Assembly (NCBI GenBank): GCA_965218435.1
Contig: CBDCKW010000009.1
Location: 96,001-160,000 of the forward strand
Source of the DNA: Truepera sp.
Lineage (GTDB): Bacteria; Deinococcota; Deinococci; Deinococcales; Trueperaceae
Reading direction: 5' to 3'
DNA length: 64,000 nt
Part shown: positions 7,637 through 24,079 of the stretch, in pieces
Position numbering within the stretch: position 1 is the first letter of the stretch
Layout: each line of letters begins with the position of its first letter
Translations under genes and position numbers: made by a program
Notes under the pieces: generated by a model
Databases searched by the model: none
What the model was told of the DNA's origin: nothing
What the model saw: only the letters and a program-made list of their open reading frames with translations

Positions 7637-8311
7637 CTACTCTTCTACGACAAACGGGAAAATAGCGGTGCAGACGACGAGATAAACCAGATCAAAGCCT
7701 GCCAACAATTGTATCCAACTCCGGCTCTCGGCAGGGTTTTCCAGCAGCATGGTGGCGCTACTCGAGCGCACCGCCGCCAAGATCACCGGGACGATAATGG
7801 GGAAGATCAGGACGGGTAAGAGGGACTCTCTAGCGCGAAGGTTTGAGGTTAGCGCGGCGTAAAAGGTCGCAATCAGTGAAAAGCCGAGGGTGCCGAGTGC
7901 GATGGTTAGGAGTAAAGAGCCGAACGCGGAGATGTCCGCGCCGAAGACGGCGGCGCTGATCGGCAGAAGGAATGCACCCAAAACGAGCATAAACAGCCAG
8001 TTCGAGAGCAGTTTGCCTAAAAAGATCGTTGCGCGCGGCACCGGGTAGAGGAGCAGCTGCTCTAAAGCGTTGTCCTCTAATTCGCCCTGATAACTCTGCG
8101 ACGCCGAAATGACCCCGGCGAAGGCGAGGGCAATCCAGAGCACGCCCGCCGAGGCGTTCCGCAGCGCGGTTTCGTTAGGGCCTAAAGCGAACGCGAGGAT
8201 AACCAGTACCAAGCCTGAAAAGAACAAGGTGGCGACGGCAACCTCTTTGCTGCGCAGCTCGAGCAGCAAATCTTTACGGGCAACGGCGAAGACAGCGGTC
8301 AGTTCAGACAT
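7637..8311 (-). CDS. ccmB: Heme exporter protein CcmB
   Basis: KDLLLELRSK N-terminus, six TMs, LLPVLIFPIIVP. Confidence 0.92.
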   Translation of the reverse strand: MSELTAVFAVARKDLLLELRSKEVAVATLFFSGLVLVILAFALGPNETALRNASAGVLWIALAFAGVISASQSYQGELEDNALEQLLLYPVPRATIFLGKLLSNWLFMLVLGAFLLPISAAVFGADISAFGSLLLTIALGTLGFSLIATFYAALTSNLRARESLLPVLIFPIIVPVILAAVRSSSATMLLENPAESRSWIQLLAGFDLVYLVVCTAIFPFVVEE

Positions 8312-9003
8312 AACTCACCAGCTTCACTGACTAGCTTCTCGGTAACATGGTTGGGGTCAGTAACCGAAAGGATGCCTCCCTCGAGGCTCAATACCCGGTC
8401 GGCGAAGCGGGCGCTGCGCCCCAGTTCATGTGAGGCCATCATCACCGTTTTACCCGCAGCTTTAGCCTCCAAGAGAAGCGTATCAATCAGCTCACGTCCG
8501 GCTTCGTCCAGCGCGGTGTAGGGTTCATCTAACAGCCACAGGTCAGCGTCAGCCAGCAAGAGACGTGCGATTCCAAGGCGTTTTTTCATCCCGCTCGAGA
8601 AGGTTCGTACCAACTTGTCGCGGGCGCTGAGTAAGCCGACGCGCCCCAGATACGCGTCCAATTCAACTTGTTTGCCGTAAAGTTTAGCTGCTAACGCTAG
8701 ATTCTCACGGGCGCTCAGTGCCCCATAAGCGCCACCGAAGACGCTCAAGTAGGCAATCCGCTCGCGGATACGGTGTGCGTCCCGCACAAGGTCAAAGCCC
8801 AACATGCGCCCACCGCCTCTACTCGGTCTGAGCCGCGTCGAAAGAACGCGTAAAAGCGTCGTTTTACCCGCGCCGTTACCGCCGCGCAGCACGAGCGTCC
8901 GCCCAGCCGTGACTTTCAGATTGACGCCGCGCAGGACGTACGCCGCGCCGTAACGCCGTGCTAAATCGTTTAGGTCAATTGCCAACGGCTGAGTCTGCGT
9001 CAC
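8299..9003 (-). CDS. ccmA: Heme ABC exporter ATPase CcmA
   Basis: GGNGAGKT Walker A, FSSGMKKR signature, LLDEP. Confidence 0.92.
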   Translation of the reverse strand: MTQTQPLAIDLNDLARRYGAAYVLRGVNLKVTAGRTLVLRGGNGAGKTTLLRVLSTRLRPSRGGGRMLGFDLVRDAHRIRERIAYLSVFGGAYGALSARENLALAAKLYGKQVELDAYLGRVGLLSARDKLVRTFSSGMKKRLGIARLLLADADLWLLDEPYTALDEAGRELIDTLLLEAKAAGKTVMMASHELGRSARFADRVLSLEGGILSVTDPNHVTEKLVSEAGELCLN

Positions 9004-9710
9004 AAGCGGCTCCAGAGCCAGTCGGGGGTGTAGCGAATCAGCGTGCCGTTAAGCGTCGTATAGGTACCGGTCAAGAGCATCACGCCCGCTGCAATTAAGA
9101 TAATGCCGGAAACGCGCTCGACCCACGGTAAATAATGTCGAAAACGGCCTAGAGCCCGTGTAAACGACCCCAGCATCACGGCTGCTGCTACAAAAGGTAC
9201 GGCCAATCCGAGTGCGTAACAGGCCAAGAGCGTCACCCCTTGCCCGAGCTGACCCGAAGTTCCCGCAATCGTCAGGACGCCGCCCAGCACAGGCCCGATA
9301 CACGGCGTCCAACCTGCAGCAAACGCCATCCCCAAAAGCACCGCGCCGATGGGCGTCTGCGTTTCACCAGCAAAGCGCACCCTCGCTTCGCGCTGCAACA
9401 AGTTGCTCAAAAAAGGTACTCGCACGCCCAACATCACCACGCCGAAAAAAACGATCAGCACGCCGCCTAAAAGCGTCAGTTCGCGGCGGTAAGCACTTAA
9501 TAGCCCCCCAAGCAAACTTGCCGAAGCGCCCAGCCCGACAAAGATGAGTGAAAAACCCAGCACAAAAAACAAGCTGCTCCGGACAACCCGTCCACGCGCC
9601 GCCCCGACGCCGCCGACATACGCTAGGTAAGAAGGAACGAGCGGCAGTACGCACGGCGACAAAAATGACAGCACGCCAGCGGTAAAAGCGAGGGGCAAGG
9701 TGGGGGTCAC
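9000..9710 (-). CDS. ccdA: Cytochrome c biogenesis protein CcdA
   Basis: SFLSPCVLPLVP and GWTPCIGPVL motifs. Confidence 0.93.
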   Translation of the reverse strand: MTPTLPLAFTAGVLSFLSPCVLPLVPSYLAYVGGVGAARGRVVRSSLFFVLGFSLIFVGLGASASLLGGLLSAYRRELTLLGGVLIVFFGVVMLGVRVPFLSNLLQREARVRFAGETQTPIGAVLLGMAFAAGWTPCIGPVLGGVLTIAGTSGQLGQGVTLLACYALGLAVPFVAAAVMLGSFTRALGRFRHYLPWVERVSGIILIAAGVMLLTGTYTTLNGTLIRYTPDWLWSRL

Positions 9711-9846
9711 AAAAACTCCGGGGGCACAGGGTCTCTAAGTATACGCGCCGGGTATGAATGTTCCCTACGGACATTTGTCCTCATAAATGGCTGAACTGAG
9801 CGTAACTTTAGTGCGGACGTAGGCTAAAGATGTGTGCGCATAAGGG

Positions 9847-9876
9847 TTGACACCACTTAGGCACGCTTCATATACT
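9847..9876 (+). promoter_or_regulatory. Sigma-70-type promoter of the tRNA operon
   Basis: TTGACA-N18-TATACT, 13 nt upstream of tRNA-Lys. Confidence 0.8.
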
Positions 9877-9889
9877 GACAAACGCTGTT

Positions 9890-9965
<76 letters not shown>

Positions 9966-9966
9966 A

Positions 9967-10041
9967 GGCTCCTTCGACTAGCGGTCAGGTCACCACTCTT
10001 TCACAGTGGCGACACGGGTTCGAATCCCGTAGGAGTCACCA
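9967..10041 (+). tRNA. tRNA-Glu (UUC)
   Basis: Anticodon arm CCACT-CTTTCAC-AGTGG, GGTTCGAATCC, CCA end. Confidence 0.97.
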
Positions 10042-10174
10042 GCAGACGGCGTTGGTATCACCTTGGGGTGGTACCAGCTTCTTTTAAGAGGTACTAGAAA
10101 GACCGGCGTCAACAACAAATTGAAGTCCGGTAGTCTATCAGTGAGTGCTTAGACTAGTTGCTGATACCAACCTT

Positions 10175-10250
10175 GGGCGATTAGCTCAGCTGGAAGAGCG
10201 CTTCCCTTACAAGGAAGATGTCGGGGGTTCGAGCCCCTCATCGCCCACCA
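10175..10250 (+). tRNA. tRNA-Val (UAC)
   Basis: Anticodon arm CTTCC-CTTACAA-GGAAG, GGTTCGAGCC, CCA end. Confidence 0.97.
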
Positions 10251-10271
10251 AGAAAAGACAGTCAGAGACGC

Positions 10272-10309
10272 AAAAAGAAGCCCCGCATAGTAGCGGGGTA
10301 GCTCTTTTG
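10272..10309 (+). terminator. Intrinsic terminator after the tRNA operon
   Basis: CCCCGC-ATAGTA-GCGGGG hairpin followed by a T-rich tract. Confidence 0.6.
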
Positions 10310-10727
10310 TAGGTCAGGTTGCACCTACGGGATTTTTAGTTCGCGGTTGACGGGTCACTTTTGGGTAAGAAGTCGAGAAGTGAGACTGCGGCGTTGACGC
10401 GCTGCTCTTTGAAAAAATCGTGTAGACATCTAAAGATGCGTGTACACATCTAAGGTGAATGAGGCTCGAGCATGTCTCAAGCGGTCTGCTAAGACCTTTG
10501 GATCAACACCGCGACGGATTGCCGTAAAAGCATGAAGTGTCTTTAGCGTAAAAAAGCTGTCCGGCAAACACTTTCTTAAATCAGCCCTGAGGCTGCTGAA
10601 CTGTTAGTGCTGTACTTAAGCTTCAGCGCAAACCTGCGTCGGCCTATCATCTTGTGACATCAAGATACGCTGCGTTACGCCTTTCTTTGGGGACAGTGAG
10701 CAAATGATTTACGAAGCAGCTTGGGCG

Positions 10728-11663
10728 CTACCAAGGTAGCGGGTCATTTTTTAGCTCGAGCTCCCAAAAGCTATCGATCTTTTTGACGACTTCAGGCGGC
10801 AGTTCTGCCCCGGCTGCTGCAGCGTTATCCAGAACTTGGCTACCTGTTTTAGCTCCGGCAATCACGGTTGACACTCCCGGTTGAGCCAACACATATTGCA
10901 GCGCCGCGTGGGTCAGTGACCTGTCCGGCGGTAGTAGCGCCGTTAGTTGCTCGACTAACGCGGCCCGGCGGGCGATAATCTCGGGTGACCAGCGGCGGCG
11001 CACGCCTTCAAACTGACTGTCACGCCGGTATTTGCCGGACAACCAGCCGGAATCGAGCGGAACTTTAGCGATTAGGCCGACGCCATGCTCTTGCGCTTTG
11101 CGAAAGCTCGCCTTCGGTTCTTGGTGAAAGATATTGAACAACACCTCGATCACACTGCTTGCCGTCGTCTCTAAAACTGTCTCGAGGTCTCTACTGTAAT
11201 CAGCCGAAACACCATACGCGCGTACCTTGCCCTCAGTTTTGAGGCGCTCCAACTCCTCGTAGTGCGGCGCGTGGTTTCCGTCCAGCAGCTCAGCAGGTGG
11301 GCTGTGGAGCAGATAAACGTCAAGATAATCCGTCTGTAAGCGTTCTAAGCTGGCCTCGAGCGACGTCCGAATGGCTGACACGCTGAAATCTGTTTTGCCT
11401 TCGGGCGAATGGCCGAACTTGCTGCAGATGCTTACGCGCTCACGGACGGGCCGGAGCACCTCGCCGAGCAGCGTTTCGCTCCGGCCTGCGCCGTAACCCG
11501 GGGCCGTGTCGAAGAAGTTGCAACCGGAGTCTAAGGCTTGTTCGATCACCTGCCGCGCTTCGTCGGGGTCGTGTACACCCCAGTCGGCGTTGGCGAGTTG
11601 CCAAGCACCCAAACCTACTTCACTGACCGAGATACCGGTTGCACCTAAAGGACGTTGGTTCAT
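10728..11663 (-). CDS. Aldo/keto reductase
   Basis: VSEVGLGAW, FFDTAPGYG, SLERLQTDYLDVYLLH. Confidence 0.93.
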   Translation of the reverse strand: MNQRPLGATGISVSEVGLGAWQLANADWGVHDPDEARQVIEQALDSGCNFFDTAPGYGAGRSETLLGEVLRPVRERVSICSKFGHSPEGKTDFSVSAIRTSLEASLERLQTDYLDVYLLHSPPAELLDGNHAPHYEELERLKTEGKVRAYGVSADYSRDLETVLETTASSVIEVLFNIFHQEPKASFRKAQEHGVGLIAKVPLDSGWLSGKYRRDSQFEGVRRRWSPEIIARRAALVEQLTALLPPDRSLTHAALQYVLAQPGVSTVIAGAKTGSQVLDNAAAAGAELPPEVVKKIDSFWELELKNDPLPW

Positions 11664-11755
11664 TATCTTCCAATCTTTGTAGCGATCCTCAGCTTAACGC
11701 AGGTTGTTACGTTTAAGCCTGAGCGTGGGTTTGGGTAAGCTCATCATGAAAGCAT

Positions 11756-13219
11756 TTACGGCGTGACTGACGCTGGAAACTGAGGAGGTTGTCTCACTTT
11801 CGTCACCTGTTCGAAAGCAAAGGCGAGTTTAAGCAGGGTAGGCTCCTGATACGCCGTGCTAAAAAAAGAGATACCAATCGGTAGTCCCCTAACAAACCCG
11901 GCAGGTACGGTGAGGTTCGGATAACCTGCTACTGCGGCCGGGGTTGAGCTGCCGCCTGAAACATGGTCGCCGTTAATCAGGTCGGTAGTCCACGCGGGGC
12001 CGTTGGTCGGGGCGACGATGGCCTCGAGCCCATGCTCTTTAAGCGTAGCGTCAATCCCCTCAGTACGTGCCAAACGATGGTTACGGGCTAACGCCTCCAA
12101 GTAAGCAGGTTCGCTTAGCGGCCCTTTAGACTGCGCTTGGATGAGAAACTCCTGCCCAAAGTAGGGCATCACGTGTTCAGCGTGTCTTTCGTTAAAGGCG
12201 ATGACATCCTCTAACGACCGTACCGGCGCGTCAGGTCCCAAGCCCTGCAAACAGGCGTTGAGACCGGCCTTAAATTCGTAGAGCAGAACTTCAAACTCAC
12301 TCTCGCTGTAAGCTGCGCCGGACTCCAGGTCAACGTCAACAAGCTCAGCGCCTTCTGAACGCAGCACTGCCAGCGCCTCTTCGATCACCGCGTCTACGCG
12401 GTCGTGAAAGCCGAAAAAGCTGCGAGCAACGCCGATACGCGCACCCCTAAGGCCGTCAGCAGCTAGAAACCGGGTGTAATCGGTTGCCTTATTTGCGTCA
12501 GTGTCTGATAGTGCGCTGAGCAAGATAGCGGCGTCCGTCACGCTGCGCGTCATCGGTCCGGCGGTGTCTTGCGAGTGAGCAATCGGAATGATGCCACTGC
12601 CACTTACCAAGCCAACGGTAGGTTTAAGGCCCACCACGCCGTTGACCCCGGCAGGGCAGGTGATAGACCCGTCCGTCTCAGTGCCAATCGCGGCGGCGCA
12701 GAGATTGGCCGAGACCGCGACACCCGAACCCGACGACGAGCCACACGGGTTTCTATCAAGCGCGTAAGGGTTTTTCGTCTGTCCGCCGCGACTGCTCCAA
12801 CCGCTGCTCGAGCGTGGTGAACGAAAGTTCGCCCACTCGCTCAGGTTCGTTTTACCGAGAATCACCGCGCCCGCGTTGCGCAAGTTCGATACCAAAGGTG
12901 CGTCTTGCTTGGGCCTCGAGCCTTCTAAAGCTAACGAACCCGCTGTCGTCATCATCTTGTCAGCCGTGTCAATATTGTCTTTTAGCATGACTGGGATGCC
13001 GTGAAGCGGGCCACGTGCCCCACTTTCGCGGCGTTCTTGGTCGAGGGCGGCGGCAATCTGAAGGGCGTCGGGGTTAAGTTCAATTACAGCGTTAAGGGTT
13101 GGGCCTTGGCGGTCGTAGTGCTCGGTACGTTCAAGGTAAGACTCAGCCAGCGAATAGGCCGTCGCTTCACCGGAAATCATCAGGGCCTGAAGCTCATGGA
13201 TACTCAGCTCGTTCATCAT
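11756..13219 (-). CDS. Amidase signature family enzyme
   Basis: GPLHGIPVMLKDN, CGSSSGSG, GTETDGSI (Ser-cisSer-Lys triad). Confidence 0.95.
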   Translation of the reverse strand: MMNELSIHELQALMISGEATAYSLAESYLERTEHYDRQGPTLNAVIELNPDALQIAAALDQERRESGARGPLHGIPVMLKDNIDTADKMMTTAGSLALEGSRPKQDAPLVSNLRNAGAVILGKTNLSEWANFRSPRSSSGWSSRGGQTKNPYALDRNPCGSSSGSGVAVSANLCAAAIGTETDGSITCPAGVNGVVGLKPTVGLVSGSGIIPIAHSQDTAGPMTRSVTDAAILLSALSDTDANKATDYTRFLAADGLRGARIGVARSFFGFHDRVDAVIEEALAVLRSEGAELVDVDLESGAAYSESEFEVLLYEFKAGLNACLQGLGPDAPVRSLEDVIAFNERHAEHVMPYFGQEFLIQAQSKGPLSEPAYLEALARNHRLARTEGIDATLKEHGLEAIVAPTNGPAWTTDLINGDHVSGGSSTPAAVAGYPNLTVPAGFVRGLPIGISFFSTAYQEPTLLKLAFAFEQVTKVRQPPQFPASVTP

Positions 13220-13233
13220 CCGACTCTACCGCT

Positions 13234-13530
13234 TCACGTCTTGTGCCGTTCGTTTTGTTGGTCGGGCCACCGCTCTTGACGAACCGGCAAGCGGTTGAGT
13301 TACCGCTGGTAAAAGGTCCGGTCCGGCATAAACTGATCTATCAAGGCGACAAAGCGGCTATGCGTGGCCTCGAGCAACTGCACCAGCTCGTGCAGCAAGA
13401 CGTACTCGAGGCACCCCTTCAGTTTTTTGGCTAAGTCCGTACTAAGCCTGATGCTCTTCCTAGCCGGGCTACAACTACCCCATTTTGTCTTCATCCGCCG
13501 GACAAAGAACGTTTTGACTATCCCAGCCCG
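13234..13530 (-). pseudogene. Truncated YgjP/DUF45 (M48-like) metallopeptidase remnant
   Basis: RRMKTKWGSC...LEYVLLHELVQ; HExxH degenerate, internal stop at 13300 followed by LNRLPVRQERW, N-terminal part missing. Confidence 0.75.
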
Positions 13531-14447
13531 CTAGTTCAAGCTATGCCCTTTAGGGCAAGACTTTAGTTGCTACTCATCTCTAAAGAGGTGACCGCGTTGA
13601 AAAACAAAGTAGTTCCACTATGTCGTCACCCACCGACGATAGAACCAACCTGTGCCGCGAGGTGCGAGAAGAAAAGGGCGCTATTCGAGCATGAGTCGGG
13701 ACTTTAGTCCAACTCAAACCTATGTACTTTCAGTGCATAGGTTGTTTAGTTCAACCTTTAACCGTGGCTGCCATTTGGCGATAAGTTCCGGTACTATATC
13801 TTTAAGTTGTTCCCGGTGCTAGGTCCCGAGTCCTTCCGCACGTTTGGCCTGTGGGAACGACAGCCTGAGCCGGAGGGATAGGGATAAAGGTTGCTGTCCT
13901 AGCACAGCCCCGGCATAGGTCACCCGTATTCTGAGCACCGATGAGGAAAACGCCCGGAGCAGGCGTGGGGGACGCTACCGGCTCACTCCTGAAATAGTTT
14001 TTGAGCACTTCAGGTGTTATCTGCGGTAAACGACAGACAAAAGATGCTGACTGCAAAGTTGTACGTTTTTTTACACTAAGGTGTCCGGCGGTTTGTTAGC
14101 CTTCGTTAACCTACTGCCGGGAGCAACCTATGGAGCAGCAATAATTCACCGGGTTCTGCTGACCTTCTAAGCTTAGCGAGAGCTAGCAGCGTGAAGTATG
14201 AAAGTAAGACTTAGACAGCAAGGAGCAGAAAAGTGATAGCTAAACAACGAAACCAGCGTCTCTCACGTACTTAAAGCATAACAAGCGCGAACGTCAATAC
14301 AACCCGGTTTTGGCGTTTCCTTCCGAACAGTTTGGTAACGCCTTGCAGCATATGTTCTGCGGCATAGGTATAGCAGGGCTTACGCCACCGCGCTACGCCA
14401 CACTTGTACGTCACACCTATATTACGTCACATCCAGAGGAGTCCAAG

Positions 14448-16373: not shown

Positions 16374-16702
16374 GTGAAGCGTGGTGATATTTACCGCGTA
16401 GACTGGGAAACCAGCATCAAAGGTGAGCCTGCTTTTAGCAGACCTGCTGTCATCTTGACAAACAATGATGCTAACAACCACCTACCTCATCTGGTAGTTG
16501 CCCCTATTACCAGCATACGCGCCTTTACCCCTTCGACGTTTTGCTGCCGGTCGCAGGTTGTGGGCTTAAAGAAAGCAGCAAAGTACAGCTCAACTATGTG
16601 CGTGGGCTCAACCGAACACCTTTAACGGGCTATCTGGGGTCACTCACCGAGGCGTTGCGGCTCGAGCTTGACGAAAAGTTACGGACTCACTTAGGGCTGT
16701 GA
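16374..16702 (+). pseudogene. Frameshifted PemK/MazF toxin
   Basis: VKRGDIYRVDW..RPAVILTN..VVAPITS, continuing in another frame near 16515 as RLYPFDVLL..SKVQLNYVRGL..LRTHLGL*. Confidence 0.8.
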
Positions 16703-17141: not shown

Positions 17142-17999
17142 ATGAACGCAGAGCTTGTCGAACAGTTGCGGCGGACACAGCAAACGTTAGAACCTCGCGC
17201 CAAAGCACTGCGTAGCGCGGCGGGTGCGCTTAAGCAGGCGCTAAAGTTAGCCGGTGAAGACAAACCCGACGCCCTGCCGATGCAAAAGGCGCTGATCAAA
17301 CTGCAAGAGGCTGCCGAGGCCGTAGACGACGACACCCTACAGGAGGCCACCGGGCACTTCCAGGCTGAAACCGAAAAGGCTTTGGGTGCGCTGGCCTTCG
17401 AGTTTGCTAAAGACCTGCGTGAGGCGTTTACGGCGCGGGGGCTCGAGGTGACGGGTCGCCCTCCGATGTTGGCTGTCAGCGAGCTGGTGCTCGGTATCGA
17501 CACGGCGGCACGCAAGGCGGGGTGGTTTTACGGCAAAGAAGCCCTCACCCGCCCGCTCCCACTCTCGCTCAGCGCCGTCGTAGGAGCGTTCGAGGGGGAG
17601 CAGCGAACGATTCTGGCGCGTGAGCTGGACACTGAAGCGTTCTTGGGAGAACTTTATACGACCTGGACGCAGGTGCTTGAGGGTAAGAGCCGCCGACCTC
17701 AGGGGGGGCGGGTCAGCCTGATCGAGACGTACAGCAAACTGGTGCTGAACCGGCAGTCGGGCCGCTTTTGGAACGCACCGTCGCGCAGCACTTTTCGGGA
17801 CTACCCGCGTGCGCTGTTCGTACGCGACCTGGTGCTGGCGCAGCCCTCGCCCACGCTTACGGTGGGCGGTGAGCGGCAGCGGCTCTTTTTGGGCGTCGCT
17901 ACCAAAAGTCAGGCGGAGAGCTCGAGCCGCAGTCTCTGGGTACCGCAGGGACCATTTGAGGGCGGCTACTACGCGGATATCACCTTTGAACCGGTTTAA
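17142..17999 (+). CDS. Hypothetical protein with helical N-terminus; first gene of the ATPase/ATPase/helicase cluster
   Basis: About 285 aa ORF with GC-rich codon usage, purine-rich RBS-like sequence upstream, no recognised motif. Confidence 0.75.
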   Translation: MNAELVEQLRRTQQTLEPRAKALRSAAGALKQALKLAGEDKPDALPMQKALIKLQEAAEAVDDDTLQEATGHFQAETEKALGALAFEFAKDLREAFTARGLEVTGRPPMLAVSELVLGIDTAARKAGWFYGKEALTRPLPLSLSAVVGAFEGEQRTILARELDTEAFLGELYTTWTQVLEGKSRRPQGGRVSLIETYSKLVLNRQSGRFWNAPSRSTFRDYPRALFVRDLVLAQPSPTLTVGGERQRLFLGVATKSQAESSSRSLWVPQGPFEGGYYADITFEPV

Positions 18000-18084
18000 G
18001 CGGTAACCTCAGTCGGCAGTGATTTTGGTCGGCAACGAGCTAAACCGTACCGGGTGGATATAATCGGCCCATGATGAACCTCGT

Positions 18085-18234
18085 CTTACGCACAAGCCGT
18101 CACACAAGGTATCAAAGGTACAGCAATGCCGAGCAGGGGAAACATAGAGCACAGAATGCTTGGTTGATGCTCCTTGCTGTATTCGCTGTTCCTTACGCGG
18201 TGACCCAAACCCGTCTACTGAGAACAAACCGCGT
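18085..18234. repeat. Non-coding element, copy A (ends shared with 21070-21330)
   Basis: 5' CTTACGCACAAGCCGTCA and 3' CGTCTACTGAGAACAAACCGCGT nearly match copy B. Confidence 0.65.
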
Positions 18235-18240
18235 GTGAGT

Positions 18241-19515
18241 ATGAACCTTTCACCGGCTCTCGCCCGTTCTATCGTCGAAGTGTTGGGGGCGTCCGGCACC
18301 CCACCCGACCGAGGGGTGCAACACTTTAACGTGGGCAACCGCTCGCTGGTCGAGGCGCTCGACACTTACTACTTCTCGTCGTATCTGCAAGACGGCGGCG
18401 CAGCCTTTAAGCTGGTCGTAGGTGACTACGGCAGCGGCAAGTCGCACTTTCTCTACTGCCTAAGAGACGTGGCCTGGGCGCGCGGCTTTGCGGTCGTCAA
18501 GGTTGACCTGAGCCCCACCGAGACGCCCTACAACGACCAGCGGCTCGTTTACGGCGCGGTCGCCCGCAACCTCGTTTGGCACGAGGGCGAAGGCGTTTCG
18601 GACGAGGCTGGACTACCCCGCTTTTTGGAGGGTACCCTGACCCGCATCGTCGGTGAGGAACCGAGTCTCGAGACCTTGAACCACCCTAACTACCGTGCGC
18701 TGGTTGATACTCTCGAGGCCAGCACGATTGACAGCGCAGCGTATAAAGTGGCGGTGCTCGCCTACTTCGACGCACTGCTGGGCGCTCATGAGGAGCGGTT
18801 GGCCTCACTGACGCGCTGGCTGCTGGCCGAAGACACCACCCCGGACGACACCAGGGTGCTGCGCGGCCTCGGCGTCACCGGCAAGATTACGCGCACCAAC
18901 GCCTTTAGAATGCTCCGTTCGCTCGCGCAGACCGTGCGGGCGCTTTCCTACAGCGGCCTGCTCCTGCTCTTCGACGAGGTTGACCGGATGAGCAGCATCG
19001 GCGGCAAAGCCGAACGGCTCGCGACCGACACCCTCCGCGAGGTCGTTGACCGCTGCCGCGACGACTTGCCCGGCGCGATGTTCGTCTACGCGGTTCCGCC
19101 GCAATTTATGAGTGACGTGGTGCCGCGTTATCCCGCCCTGCAACAGCGTCTGCGTGCTCCGGCGCGGTTTTCCAGAACGAACCACTTCAGCCCGCAGATC
19201 AGCTTGGAGCATCTCGATTTAGCCGAAGACGACCTGATGCTCGCCATCGGCGAAAAGCTCGTGCCCATCTTTGAGACCGCGTTCGGGGCCGACCTCGATG
19301 AGAAAATCCAGCACGCCAACGCCGCCATCCTCGCGAACGTCGCGCGCGACGTGTTTCTCGATGTAAGCCACCGGCGGCTGTTTATCAAGACTTTTGTCAC
19401 CGAACTCGCCCGCCAGCACGCCGAAGGGGAGCGGGTGCTGACCGAGCCGGAGGCTACGGCCCGGTTGCGGGGTCAGGCCGAAGCCCTTGGGGACGGCCTG
19501 ACCCCACCGTACTAG
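18241..19515 (+). CDS. BrxD/DUF2791-like P-loop ATPase
   Basis: GTPP..G..NVG N-terminus, Walker A GDYGSGKSH, Walker B LLLLFDE, YPALQQRL. Confidence 0.85.
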   Translation: MNLSPALARSIVEVLGASGTPPDRGVQHFNVGNRSLVEALDTYYFSSYLQDGGAAFKLVVGDYGSGKSHFLYCLRDVAWARGFAVVKVDLSPTETPYNDQRLVYGAVARNLVWHEGEGVSDEAGLPRFLEGTLTRIVGEEPSLETLNHPNYRALVDTLEASTIDSAAYKVAVLAYFDALLGAHEERLASLTRWLLAEDTTPDDTRVLRGLGVTGKITRTNAFRMLRSLAQTVRALSYSGLLLLFDEVDRMSSIGGKAERLATDTLREVVDRCRDDLPGAMFVYAVPPQFMSDVVPRYPALQQRLRAPARFSRTNHFSPQISLEHLDLAEDDLMLAIGEKLVPIFETAFGADLDEKIQHANAAILANVARDVFLDVSHRRLFIKTFVTELARQHAEGERVLTEPEATARLRGQAEALGDGLTPPY

Positions 19516-19517
19516 AG

Positions 19518-20951
19518 ATGATCGGGACGCCCGTTGAGCACCCTCAGTACGGCCCCGGTCAGGTGGTCGCCGTTTACAAACGGGGCAGCGAGTGGTTGGT
19601 GCGTTTTGAGAGCGGCCTGCGTTTCCGGCGACCCCGGCAGGAGTTTACGGGGGAGCACGCCGACGCCGCGCCCATCGCCCCGGCTCGTGCCACTCAAGTC
19701 AACCCGCCGCTGCTCGAGGGCCGGTTTGGGGCACGTGGGCTGATCGAGGCGCTGCGGCTCGGCATTGCGCCTGCGCAGCAAGCGCAGGCGCTTACCATCG
19801 GTCTGGAGAAAGAGCGTGCCAGCCTGGGCGCAGGGTTAGAGAGTGCGCAGCGGGGTCACGGCGCGGTGCGTGCGGTGGTCGGCGACTACGGTCAGGGCAA
19901 GAGCCACATCGTCGAACTCACCGCTCAAGCGGCGCTCGAGCGCAACTTTTTGGTCGCCGGTAGCAGTCTCGACCTGCTCGAGCTGCCGCCCCACCGCGGC
20001 TTCGATATCTACGCCAGCCTCGCGCAGAACCTCCGCTACCCGGACAACGACGAGTGGGGGGACGAGCGGGGGTTGGGGCCGCTGTTAGAACGCGCCACCG
20101 AACGGCAGCTCGCGGAACCTCTGGCGGCGGCAGCGGCGCTCGAGGTTGATCCCTTACAGCTCACCGTCCGCGCCCTGGCGACGACCGCTTCGTCGCGGCA
20201 GCGGCGTGCTTGGGAGCGGTTTTTAGCCGAAGGTCGCCGGGTTAAAGCGATGAACCCGGCCCTCAAGCAGCTTTTACCCAAGGGGCAACGGTTTCCCAGC
20301 CTCTACAAGGTCGGTCACAACGCCCGTCAGCTGGCCTATCTGCTGAGCGGCGTGAGCGTCCTCGCCCGGCTCGCGGGGTACAGCGGTCTCGCGGTCCTCA
20401 TCGACGAAGCCGAAAGCTACTCGCTGCTCAAGCCTTACCAGCGCCCCAAAGCAGGGCAATTTTTCAGCGCGGTCAGCTATGCGGCGCTGTCGGGCCGACA
20501 CCCACATCTGCGCGAAAATGACTTCGCTCATCACCGCTTCTGGGACTACCCGCTGTACTATGGGGGTTCCTCTGGTAATTCTTATAGCGGCTCCGCCGGA
20601 CTCTTTTTTCTCTTTACCGTAACCCGCAGCGATAACCGCTTGCCGCTCGAGGTGTGGCTCGCGCCTGAAGACGTGCTCGAGCTCGAGCCTCATCTCAGCC
20701 CGCAAGAACTCGCGCAGTTTTTAGAGACGCTGGGGCGTTTTCACGCCCAAGCCTACGCTTACACGCCGGACGAGCGCCACGGACAACTGCGCCGCGCCGC
20801 CGCAGAACACCTCGCGCGGGGGGTGCGAAACCACCTTTTGGGCGTACGCGGGGCGGTGCGCCTGAGCGTTGACCTTTTCGACCTCCTCTATCTCTACCCT
20901 GAGTACGAAGTGGTGACGATCTTGGACGAACTGCGGGCGCAGCTGCGATAG
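19518..20951 (+). CDS. Second BrxD/DUF2791-like ATPase with N-terminal Tudor-like domain
   Basis: VEHPQYGPGQV..WLVRF N-terminus; IEALRLGIAP, GDYGQGKSH, GYSGLAVLIDEAE. Confidence 0.82.
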   Translation: MIGTPVEHPQYGPGQVVAVYKRGSEWLVRFESGLRFRRPRQEFTGEHADAAPIAPARATQVNPPLLEGRFGARGLIEALRLGIAPAQQAQALTIGLEKERASLGAGLESAQRGHGAVRAVVGDYGQGKSHIVELTAQAALERNFLVAGSSLDLLELPPHRGFDIYASLAQNLRYPDNDEWGDERGLGPLLERATERQLAEPLAAAAALEVDPLQLTVRALATTASSRQRRAWERFLAEGRRVKAMNPALKQLLPKGQRFPSLYKVGHNARQLAYLLSGVSVLARLAGYSGLAVLIDEAESYSLLKPYQRPKAGQFFSAVSYAALSGRHPHLRENDFAHHRFWDYPLYYGGSSGNSYSGSAGLFFLFTVTRSDNRLPLEVWLAPEDVLELEPHLSPQELAQFLETLGRFHAQAYAYTPDERHGQLRRAAAEHLARGVRNHLLGVRGAVRLSVDLFDLLYLYPEYEVVTILDELRAQLR

Positions 20952-21069
20952 CTGTCGCCATTTCAGAACCAGTTAAAGGTGTTGACAGCGTGCACTGTGG
21001 AAAAGAAGCAGGAAGCAGTAAGTGGCGGCCAGCTAAAAAACCGTGTTTCTCTACGCACTCAAAACGCAG

Positions 21070-21330
21070 CTTACGCACAAGCTGTCAAAGACACAGCAAT
21101 ACTTCGGACAGGTTTTGACATAAAATCCGAGTTGACTCGTCTGTGACGCAAAGCTCTTTGATAAAAGTCGTATCGAGAAGCGTCGTCCCCGACGTGTTTT
21201 CTAGGAAAGTATCCGAACTAATGATACAGAACATCTGCTGAAAAGGAAGAATGAAGCGTTCTCTACTCTCCCTTCTGCGTTCTTCATTCCTTTATATACC
21301 CACTCGTCTACCGAGAACAAACTGCGTAAG
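21070..21330. repeat. Non-coding element, copy B, with 8-bp terminal inverted repeats (MITE-like)
   Basis: Begins CTTACGCA and ends TGCGTAAG; end motifs shared with copy A. Confidence 0.6.
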
Positions 21331-21406
21331 GTGAATGAGGACGTAAGGCTCGAGCGCCCCAACGTCCAACCGATAGACGACCCTAAAGGGTAAGCTTTGA
21401 GGGCAG

Positions 21407-23476
21407 ATGGACACGCAGCTCAAAACCCAACTCGCCCGCACTTGGCCGGTCTTCTTCGCCGGGTACGGCTCGTTTACCGAGGTGCAGCGGCGCGCCATGC
21501 CCGTCATCTTGGCTGGTTGGGACACGCTGATTACGGCTGCGACCGCCTCGGGCAAAACCGAAGCGGCGCTGGTCCCGCTTTTAGAGCGGCACATCCTCGG
21601 CCGTGAGGGTTCCGGGCTGCGCCTCTTGTACCTCTGCCCGACGCGTGCGCTGCTCCGCGACCTGTTTGGGCGGCTCGAGCCCTCCTTACGCACCCTGGGC
21701 GTTGCGGCAACTATGAAAAGCGGCGATACCGGCCCGGTCTCTTCGCGTCGCCCGCCCACGGTACTCTTTACCACCCCGGAATCGACCGACTCGCTCCTCA
21801 CCCGTTCCCCCCGCCTCTTCCGAACCCTCGAGGCGCTTGTCCTAGATGAAATCCATCTCTTTGACGACAGTCCCAGAGGGGATCAGGTGCGCTGTCTGCT
21901 GGCACGTCTCGAGGTCATCCGTCAATTCAGTCAACCAGAGTTTGGTCAGCCGACGCGCCCCCCCGCACAGCGCGTCGCCCTCTCCGCCACCGTGGACGCG
22001 CCGGGGGCAATTGCCGCACGGTATCTGCGTGACGCGGTGATCGTTCAGGTTCCGGGCCACCGGGGTATAGCGGCCGAAATCGCGTCCATAAGTGAGCTTG
22101 GCGACCTGACGGCGGCGCTCGCAAAGGGCACCGCCAAAAAGACCCTCGTCTTTTGTAACACCCGTCACGAGGTCGAGCAGGTCGGGACTTTTTTGCGCCA
22201 AACGCTCCCTTTCGAGGCCACCGTACTGGTGCATTACGCCGATCTGGACAGCGCCATGCGGCGCGAGGTGGAGACGCGCTTTGCCGAAGCGAGCGTCGCG
22301 GTCTGTGTCAGCACCTCGACGTTGGAACTCGGCGTTGACATCGGCAGCGTCGATGAGGTGGCGCTGCTCGGGCCGCCCCCCAACCTGAGTGCGTTTTTGC
22401 AGCGCGTCGGACGGGGTGGCCGGCGGCGGCGCGAGAGCCGGGTGTTATGTTTGGCCCGCTCCGCGCTCGAGGTTCGCCACTTCGACGCGCTGCTCCGCCT
22501 GGCGCATGGGTTGATGCCTAAACTCCCGGCGCGGCACTACCCCTTTCGGCCGTCGGTATTGGTTCAACAGGCTTTTAGCCTCATCAAGCAGAGCCCTACC
22601 GGAGGGTTGCGTTTGGCCGACCTGCGCCGCGTTGTGCCGGAGGGACTAGGGGAGGGGACGCTCCGGAACGTTTTAGATCACCTCGTTACGGAAGACTACC
22701 TGACGCGCGGACGACCCGGCGAGTGGCGGGCCGGGCCGGGTCTCAACGAACTCGCGGACCGGCACGAGCTTTACAGCAACATCGGCGGCGACGTTTTGAC
22801 GACGACTGTCGTAGACGCTTACAGCGGACGACCGGTCGCCCGTACCGACCGACCGCGCCGGGTCGGTGAAACGTTGCTGATGGCGGGCCGCCCGGTCGAA
22901 GTGGCGTGGCGCGACCGGCACACGTTTGCGGTCAAGGAAGGTAAGCGCAGCGCCGCAAAAGACGTCATGCGCCTGGTCCGTTCGCGTCAAGCGGTACCGC
23001 TCGAGCTGGCTCAAGGCGTCGCTTCGTCATTCGGCCTTGGGGTAGGGGAGATGCCGCTTTTGCAGGACTCCTACGGGCTGCAGCTCGTTCATTTTTGGGG
23101 CGACGTTTACGGCGCGTGGCTCGCAGCTATCTTGCAAGCACACCACCTACAAAAATATTGGGAAGCACAGTACGCGCGTGAGGACGAACCCTTTGTGTTC
23201 TCGTACGACGCTTATACGCTCCGCCTTCCGTTTCCAGTCCCGGCCTTGCCGCCGTGGGACAGCACACTGGCGCTGGGCACGCTTAAAACGCTGGTACCCC
23301 GGCTCGAGCCTTACCTCGAGCTGGGCCGCTTTCAGCCTCTCTTGTCACCGGAGGTGGCGCTCGGGGGAATTGTAGCGGAGTGCGACGTAGTGCGGTTTGA
23401 AGCCCTTTACCGCGCAGGGAGGCTGATACCGGTGTCGCCGGGGCTCCGTGAAGCGTTACGGGAGCTGCACGAATAA
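21407..23476 (+). CDS. Lhr-like DEAD/DEAH-box SF2 helicase
   Basis: ATASGKT, PTRAL, TTPES, DEIH, SAT, STLELGVDIG, QRVGRGGR. Confidence 0.92.
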   Translation: MDTQLKTQLARTWPVFFAGYGSFTEVQRRAMPVILAGWDTLITAATASGKTEAALVPLLERHILGREGSGLRLLYLCPTRALLRDLFGRLEPSLRTLGVAATMKSGDTGPVSSRRPPTVLFTTPESTDSLLTRSPRLFRTLEALVLDEIHLFDDSPRGDQVRCLLARLEVIRQFSQPEFGQPTRPPAQRVALSATVDAPGAIAARYLRDAVIVQVPGHRGIAAEIASISELGDLTAALAKGTAKKTLVFCNTRHEVEQVGTFLRQTLPFEATVLVHYADLDSAMRREVETRFAEASVAVCVSTSTLELGVDIGSVDEVALLGPPPNLSAFLQRVGRGGRRRRESRVLCLARSALEVRHFDALLRLAHGLMPKLPARHYPFRPSVLVQQAFSLIKQSPTGGLRLADLRRVVPEGLGEGTLRNVLDHLVTEDYLTRGRPGEWRAGPGLNELADRHELYSNIGGDVLTTTVVDAYSGRPVARTDRPRRVGETLLMAGRPVEVAWRDRHTFAVKEGKRSAAKDVMRLVRSRQAVPLELAQGVASSFGLGVGEMPLLQDSYGLQLVHFWGDVYGAWLAAILQAHHLQKYWEAQYAREDEPFVFSYDAYTLRLPFPVPALPPWDSTLALGTLKTLVPRLEPYLELGRFQPLLSPEVALGGIVAECDVVRFEALYRAGRLIPVSPGLREALRELHE

Positions 23477-24079
23477 CGGTAGCGCGTACAGGTCGGGGTC
23501 TGAAGAGGTAATACTAATTCCGATTGATTTGTTTGCATAAACGGACAAGTCCGAGCGGAGCGAGTGGGAACAAATATACGGGTGGAGCGTAATAGACGAT
23601 CACTGAGGCTTTTTCTCGGTGATCGGGAATAAAGCGGAATCCGTATAAGACACAAAATCCAGAAACACATTTACTAGGTTGTGTTGATGTTTGCTCTTAT
23701 TATCCTGCTTTAAGTCCGTGAGAGACGCTATTTTCGTTATTCGGCTACTGCCTTCTGCTTGACTCTTTCGCATTACATACAGCTGACGACCCTCGCTAAG
23801 CTCAGAATATCAGCAGAACCCAGCTAGTGGCTAACCCAGGCATCATTACGGGCACTACGCGACCTCTGGACTCGCACTTCGCGCCACGCTTCAAGGGGCA
23901 CAGAGAGCATGACCAGCTTGGCTTGACCGTGACGTACATATTTGCTGACGCATATTCGTAATCCGTGCGGATGCAGGTGTGGGCCAGCACACCCTAGAGG
24001 GAGATGATGACCCAAAACCTCAGTTGAAAGTTCCGTTACCGCGAAGTCAAAGGGGCAGCTGGTCCGTCTGAGCGTGCTG

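Follow-up and report, generated by a model that had tools for sequence, protein, structure and literature searches.

A conserved four-gene module of the BrxD-BrxHI/Shango lineage in Truepera and Chloroflexota, a candidate accessory defense system with a putative split helicase loader

A 64,000-nucleotide stretch of one contig of Truepera sp. (the window in what follows; host genome G000, 100% complete) holds four neighboring genes encoding a protein of no known family (gene 1), two BrxD/DUF2791-family ATPases (ATPase 1 and ATPase 2), and an Lhr-like superfamily 2 (SF2) helicase. The initial annotation proposed that they form an undescribed defense system, and the locus thus raises the question of what such a set would do, and how. 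We tentatively favor, at an even chance or slightly below, the view that the four proteins make up a self-contained DNA-processing module of BrxD-BrxHI/Shango descent that acts as an accessory anti-phage or anti-mobile-element system. This preference follows from its kinship with Shango and BREX, its patchy spread, and the toxin-antitoxin (TA) and restriction-modification (RM) cargo nested within it. In our best reading, the parts would fit a split loader resembling the origin recognition complex (ORC) and Cdc6, serving the Lhr-like helicase. New here are the division of catalytic residues between the two ATPases, a UvrD/PcrA-type Tudor domain on ATPase 2, and a weak likeness of gene 1 to the ORC1 winged helix.

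The four-gene locus and its conservation

All four genes proved genuine and undamaged, and they evolve under purifying selection. All are plus-strand open reading frames (ORFs), separated by 241 nt after gene 1, 2 nt between the ATPase genes, as had been annotated, and 455 nt before the helicase gene. The Walker A (GDYGSGKS and GDYGQGKS) and Walker B (LLLFDE and VLIDEAES) motifs are all present, and the SF2 motifs are complete, DEIH included. Nonsynonymous-to-synonymous rate ratios (dN/dS) against G008 are 0.09 to 0.21 for the module genes, a rough estimate with dS above 1. Membership of both ATPases in PF10923 was borne out by a hidden Markov model search (156 bits for ATPase 1 and 96 bits for ATPase 2). 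The two are as divergent from each other as the initial annotation held, BLASTP aligning just 128 residues at 32% identity, yet they are homologous by profile (hhalign, 99.6%). Each module gene is single-copy in G000, and third-position GC content is 0.72 to 0.79, against 0.67 ± 0.07 across the long ORFs of that genome, so there is no AT-rich island signature. Scanning the window for sigma-70 sites gave none, and no shared palindromes were found upstream of the module.

A gene-1 alignment retrieved 80 genome loci. All four genes occur in the same order in 57 of these, that is, in every locus long enough (57/57 colinear), and the remaining 23 stop at contig edges, 0 to 1,850 bp past the last gene found; in one of the truncated loci (L046), the helicase end is inverted. 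This colinearity, together with the dN/dS values, argues that the locus is more than chance. A distant subfamily, whose gene 1 encodes 345 aa, yielded 80 metagenome loci (not dereplicated); 38 of them are complete, and the other 42 end within 3,018 bp. L095 and L226 hold versions further removed still, and L092 (positions 8087-12089, genome G012) carries a gene 1-like gene, ATPase 1, and a Tudor-ATPase 2, with no helicase match in 20 kb. Since the wide gene-1 alignment is too divergent for collection scans, this most distant subfamily (~25% identity) is sampled only through these three loci.

As the initial annotation anticipated, the four genes co-occur elsewhere, across two phyla. In Deinococcota, 12 of 299 genomes match at an E value of 0.001 or better, 10 of them strongly (G000 among them), and the module was not found in any of the five congeners searched; in the class of G300, 30 of 401 genomes match, 25 strongly. 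These two tallies take in the unpublished genomes G278 and G629, and no claim hinges on those alone. The Chloroflexota families of G300 and G301 contain 40 carriers among 135 genomes and 47 among 128, with one match per genome; both families were picked around known carriers, so the prevalence of 30 to 37% is a high-end rate. ATPase 1 retains 70 to 80% identity across the two phyla, is single-copy, and has a tree that follows host families.

Quick trees, supported by the SH-like approximate likelihood ratio test (SH-aLRT) only, were built for ATPase 1, ATPase 2, and the helicase; the reference rows were four plasmid Shango loci, one annotated plasmid gene, and L093 and L094, whose BREX-like neighbors were judged by eye. 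Each of the three proteins forms its own clade apart from the SngB/SngC and BrxD/BrxHI-like rows, the helicase clade with a support of 99. The Deinococcota rows cluster with a support of 99 for ATPase 2 and 83 for ATPase 1 (L224 falling outside the latter), and a group from a single Chloroflexota family has good support. Such trees would fit an old inter-phylum transfer, followed by descent and frequent loss.

Table 1. Features of the module and its surroundings, in window coordinates
Feature	Position	Strand	Description
Gene 1	17142..17999	+	285 aa; no known family; putative DNA-binding adaptor
ATPase 1	18241..19515	+	424 aa; BrxD/DUF2791 family; ALQQR arginine-finger motif kept; Pro at the sensor-1-position Thr
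ATPase 2	19518..20951	+	477 aa; divergent BrxD/DUF2791 paralogue; Walker A/B intact; T369 kept; no ALQQR
N-terminal Tudor domain of ATPase 2, UvrD/PcrA C-terminal-domain type	19518..19652	+	Profile match to UvrD C-terminal domains
Lhr-like SF2 helicase (BrxHI/SngC type)	21407..23476	+	689 aa; every motif intact
Dispersed element resembling a miniature inverted-repeat transposable element (MITE), with short terminal inverted repeats	21097..21224	.	In the ATPase 2-helicase spacer; passenger
Broken MazF/PemK-like toxin gene	16377..16692	+	PF02452, 39 bits; local remnant outside the module
YgjP-like fragment with internal stop	13291..13515	-	PF01863, E of 4e-20; local remnant 3.6 kb upstream

Relation to Shango and type 2 BREX

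For three of the four module genes, the nearest homologues in the catalogue are defense components, and the set as a whole matches no PADLOC system, as expected of one that is not catalogued. Shango, whose anti-phage activity is described in 10.1101/2022.11.11.516204 and which is also treated in 10.1101/2022.05.11.491447, likewise combines a first gene with a PF10923 ATPase and an Lhr-like helicase, and neither set includes a nuclease or methylase. ATPase 1 and ATPase 2 score 98 and 60 bits against SngB, and the helicase scores 208 bits against SngC. Unlike Shango, however, the module has no TerB-domain first gene in the manner of SngA; it has two ATPases, each outside the SngB clade, and a Tudor domain; its helicase, while homologous to SngC, falls in the separate clade noted above; and it is chromosomal and was not found on plasmids. 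The initial annotation saw the ATPase pair and gene 1 as replacing SngA and SngB; the ATPases form separate clades and are not derived SngB copies.

The best PADLOC matches are to the BrxD-BrxHI pair of type 2 BREX (114 bits for ATPase 1 against BrxD and 237 bits for the helicase against BrxHI), in which an ATPase gene also stands upstream of a BrxHI-type helicase gene, in conserved order. The module differs from it in its extra gene 1 and second ATPase, and its ATPases reach 116 and 66 bits against a cutoff of 350 for the NCBIfam BrxD model (NF033438). PglZ (PF08665) was found neither in G000 nor among 259 scanned flank ORFs, and there was no PglX, PglW, or BrxC among the scanned flank genes. 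By its defining features, as far as sequence can define them, the module belongs neither to Shango nor to type 2 BREX. No description of a twin-BrxD module was found in the literature searched, whose coverage is incomplete and leaves most subscription papers outside, nor in the accessible parts of 10.1101/2025.09.30.679545 and 10.1101/2024.10.26.620412.

Related arrangements were seen elsewhere. Plasmid collections gave only distant matches (<60% identity), and all four such loci inspected outside Deinococcus proved to be Shango. A Deinococcus psychrotolerans plasmid (L228:5002-18804) carries two pairs of BrxD-like and helicase genes behind unannotated proteins. In genome G020 (L096:7489-12649), a 992-aa protein with a BrxD-like C-terminal part lies directly upstream of an Lhr-like helicase, a different architecture.

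Components of a putative helicase loader

The two ATPases differ in which residues they preserve. In ATPase 1, R302 (in the motif ALQQR) and P285 are each present in 118 of 118 homologues (numbering starts at window position 18244, with the ATG at 18241, so residue numbers are one below Met-based ones), and alignment places a Pro at the position that, in SngB/BrxD-like proteins, is taken by the Thr of the GTP following strand 4. In ATPase 2, K128, D296, E297, T369, and R444 occur in 88 of 88 homologues, T369 being the retained sensor-1-position Thr; ALQQR is missing, and the nearest Arg, R374, is found in 70 of 88. Because ATPase 1 keeps the finger and loses the Thr while ATPase 2 does the reverse, the residue patterns suggest an ordered heteromer.

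BrxD is described as an ORC/Cdc6 AAA+ ATPase without DNA-binding domains and is proposed to load BrxHI; a winged helix follows the ATPase in BrxC but is missing from BrxD (PMC12839542). In the module, gene 1 could supply such a domain. It has no Pfam, PADLOC, or NCBIfam match, and two earlier statements about it held: it is unrelated to SngA (its profile against four plasmid SngA proteins gave E values of 0.32 or worse, and hhalign 0.2%), and, as suits a soluble protein, it has no transmembrane segment. The AlphaFold2 model is confident (predicted local distance difference test [pLDDT], 92.9; predicted TM score, 0.80) and divides into a helical bundle (residues 1-82), an alpha+beta domain (82-161), and a winged-helix-like domain (162-285). 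Among the 50 matches listed for residues 162-285 there are ORC chains only, aligned through chain A with Z scores of 5.5 to 6.7 and root mean square deviations of 2.8 to 4.4 Å over 78 to 89 residues, and in the Foldseek search with gene 1, a chain from an ORC-Cdc6 entry ranks first (E of 0.32). We take the matched region of ORC chain A (residues 768-850) to be the ORC1/Cdc6 winged helix, which the C-terminal domain, as modeled, weakly resembles. Residues Q205, P213, Y221, R223, F226, A253, and G274 are conserved among 114 homologues. Searches with the whole model returned generic helical-bundle matches only, and none in PDB or BFVD reached an E value of 0.001; against PDB sequences, the gene-1 profile matched only coiled-coil noise, and the ESM Atlas gave unnamed clusters only. 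A model of residues 94-285 made without an alignment was unusable (pLDDT, 29.9). No longer or fused forms of gene 1 were found, which is weak evidence.

The helicase retains K50, T51, D147, E148, and H150 in 71 of 71 sequences. It scores far below the cutoffs of the canonical Lhr equivalogs (170 versus 850 bits for TIGR04121 and 67 versus 1,496 bits for PRK09751) and fits, by description, the "Lhr-like" group without Domain 4 (PMC8301817).

The N terminus of ATPase 2 is, on profile evidence, homologous to the UvrD/PcrA Tudor domain. The top four PDB matches of a profile of residues 1-45 are UvrD C-terminal domains (best E of 1e-4, 7egt_B), with a conserved His and basic residue, and the sole other host match to this profile is the C terminus of a UvrD-like ORF. 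In contrast to UvrD and PcrA, ATPase 2 carries the domain N terminally on an AAA+ ATPase, and the copy scores below the Pfam cutoff, PF21196 giving matches of this kind in 13 of 31 members. In PcrA, the Tudor domain attaches to a TGE hairpin found both in RpoB and in UvrB (PMC8318588, PMC5397179). A strict version of this helicase-interaction motif occurs in none of the module proteins; three host ORFs match it, none read as RpoB or UvrB. A hairpin of the module helicase, VDxxSGR, is similar to the Tudor-binding motif and was considered as an internal Tudor partner but rejected, as Glu occupies the key position in just 4 of 72 sequences.

From the gene content and order, their conservation, the residue asymmetry, and the Tudor-like sequence, we infer the following mechanism. 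ATPase 1 and ATPase 2 would assemble as an ordered ORC/Cdc6-like heteromer in which the arginine finger of ATPase 1 serves the ATPase 2 site, and ATPase 2, without a conserved finger, would terminate the chain. Gene 1, in the place of SngA in Shango, would contribute, as a separate protein, the winged-helix DNA-binding domain missing from BrxD-type ATPases, and the Tudor domain would dock the complex onto a protein partner. ATP hydrolysis could then load or activate the Lhr-like helicase, which would unwind or block foreign replication or transcription intermediates with no nuclease of its own. This split-loader reading is favored for the complementary invariance of R302 and P285 as opposed to T369 without ALQQR, and because the junction between gene 1 and ATPase 1 is interrupted just once in 49 complete loci, as opposed to 12 times between the ATPases and 20 times between ATPase 2 and the helicase. 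ORC/Cdc6 serves as a works-like analogy: it shares the AAA+ clade (PMC12839542), paralogous subunits with unequal catalytic residues, and the chain A domain that gene 1 resembles. It differs in that the module's winged helix would sit on a separate protein and its client would be an SF2 helicase rather than MCM, and the fold match is weak.

The same anatomy would also suit a lineage-enriched genome-maintenance machine, a possible alternative to which we give less than an even chance. Here, the Tudor domain would dock onto RNA polymerase or UvrB, and the ATPases would load the helicase where transcription complexes have stalled, at R-loops, or on repair intermediates. In its favor are the Tudor homology itself, the invariant H8 and R35 of that domain, which in our own motif reading appear to match H681 and K712 of PcrA, residues selected for mutation as RNA polymerase-binding (PMC5397179), and the use of the PcrA Tudor domain, through its binding of RpoB and UvrB, to suppress R-loops (PMC8318588). 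Mycobacterial Lhr prefers RNA:DNA duplexes and is damage induced (PMC8301817), and slow evolution, single copy, housekeeping flanks, and the prevalence in two families would all suit upkeep. However, the module was not found in 63 to 70% of the searched genomes of both families or in the five congeners, the residue matching PcrA L714 is Arg, none of the three host ORFs with the strict motif reads as RpoB or UvrB, and the module's own proteins do not contain the motif. The sequence GAAC-N4-GTTC, the Gram-positive-type LexA box consensus, occurs before gene 1 in 0 of 70 upstream regions (0.2 in shuffled ones), which lends no support to the DNA damage response suggested initially. In the accessible literature covered, moreover, characterized contexts of the BrxD family are all defensive. 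A narrower proposal, which we regard as unlikely, is a transcription-coupled loader: a split ORC/Cdc6-like heteromer with a free winged-helix subunit, docked on RNA polymerase or UvrB by a captured Tudor domain, that would load the Lhr-like helicase onto RNA:DNA hybrids.

Nested cargo, flanks, and significance

To return to the favored defense reading, we compared genes inserted in the module with those flanking it. Nine frameshifted or near-duplicate loci were left out. ORF calling in the rest gave 91 ORFs inserted in the module, 259 in its near flanks, and 360 in its far flanks; the scans cover 87 of the inserted and all 259 near-flank ORFs (139 nearest and 120 further). Among the inserted ORFs, 46 of 87 received a Pfam label, and 36 of these 46 are, in our own reading, TA, RM, CARF, or AAA15+PIN genes, compared to 11 TA-like genes among the 104 labeled of the 139 nearest flank ORFs; this difference favors the defense reading. 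The nearest flank ORFs include no RM, CRISPR, or BREX genes, and the 120 further ones gave 16 PADLOC matches (1 Mrr-type, 2 PDC-S03, and 13 read as generic domains). The enrichment near defense genes that had been envisaged is thus not seen in the flanks. Set side by side, the insert and flank labels indicate that the operon draws defense cargo inside but lies outside defense islands. Inserts are present in 25 of the 49 complete loci; a TA- or RM-labeled insert occurs in 16 of 49 and an RM-type insert in 6 of 49, several of these loci being related.

Some of the cargo and neighbors recur. Directly after ATPase 2, five loci (L012:14286-15994, L013, L035, L036, and L048) carry an AAA_15/AAA_21 ATPase gene with a small gene, PIN-labeled in 4 of 5, a candidate two-gene defense module. 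A Card1-type CARF-domain gene is nested between ATPase 2 and the helicase in L019 (10627-11574). In a few related Chloroflexota loci (L047:7490-9868, L014:8286-9740, L034:7491-9830, L037, and L039), the stretch just before the module holds RecJ-family or Helicase_C_3 genes, which probably reflects shared ancestry.

Several points weigh against a defense module with a split loader. The arginine finger and sensor 1 were assigned by alignment, hhalign puts the region elsewhere, and R374 of ATPase 2 could be a displaced finger. The winged-helix match of gene 1 has a middling, commonly seen Z score, and no Foldseek E value is below 0.001. The conservation of ATPase 1, single copy, family-following tree, and family prevalence are atypical of a gene in an arms race; searches of phage and viral collections turned up no module match, and no close orthologue was found there or on plasmids. 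The flanks are housekeeping or metabolic, and TA genes may enter any operon of these genomes. Finally, the operon encodes no effector domain, a feature that would also suit a domesticated former defense or mobile module, either accessory to a partner elsewhere (a nuclease or a BREX core) or a landing site whose TA and RM cargo is the main reason that it is kept. The inserts in about half of the complete loci would agree with this, as would the PglZ that 3 of the 11 carrier genomes tested have at another place. We consider it quite unlikely: PglZ was not found in the other eight, G000 included, and where present lies 0.3 to 3.4 Mb from the module, and 24 of 49 loci are insert-free, yet the catalytic residues are all invariant.

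The surroundings in Truepera add local detail. The decayed MazF and YgjP genes reported upstream are both real; the MazF-like gene adjoins the module with its frame broken, but the YgjP-like fragment is 3.6 kb off, behind an intact 660-aa gene. They are not shared context, as neither family occurs among the 139 nearest flank ORFs. Four other copies of the MITE-like element, with 75 to 79% identity, exist in G000; one is just upstream of a uvrD-like gene, which we treat as coincidence since the remaining copies flank unrelated genes. A multicopy dispersed repeat, with inverted copies at 14151-14278 and 23706-23821, brackets a 9.6-kb segment containing the module and could mark a mobilizable unit or be chance. 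A 26-nt direct repeat (88%), at 18209-18234 just upstream of ATPase 1 and at 21302-21327 in the prehelicase spacer, belongs to another dispersed repeat family. A tRNA-Lys/Glu/Val cluster lies at 9890-10250, and the neighboring 10.5 to 24 kb is a mosaic of genes unlinked in congeners; there is no clean empty site in those congeners, where the module-flanking genes sit at unlinked places. Elsewhere in G000, two recA matches with identical scores (G000:C9:1610315-1611103 and 2069696-2070484) are either a recently duplicated gene or a repeat of the assembly.

Type 2 BREX and Shango pose the same question, that of what the BrxD-BrxHI pair does. As a stand-alone module in which the catalytic residues are split between two ATPases, and in which a candidate DNA-binding subunit and a docking domain stand apart, the present locus makes the helicase-loader hypothesis testable with a few point mutants. 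The transcription-coupled loader, if true, would amount to a new repair pathway built from defense parts or to a defense that senses phage transcription. If the module is a maintenance system, about a third of the genomes searched in two Chloroflexota families would have domesticated defense parts. Whether for virus defense or for genome upkeep, either of which it may serve, the module is carried by many little-studied bacteria.

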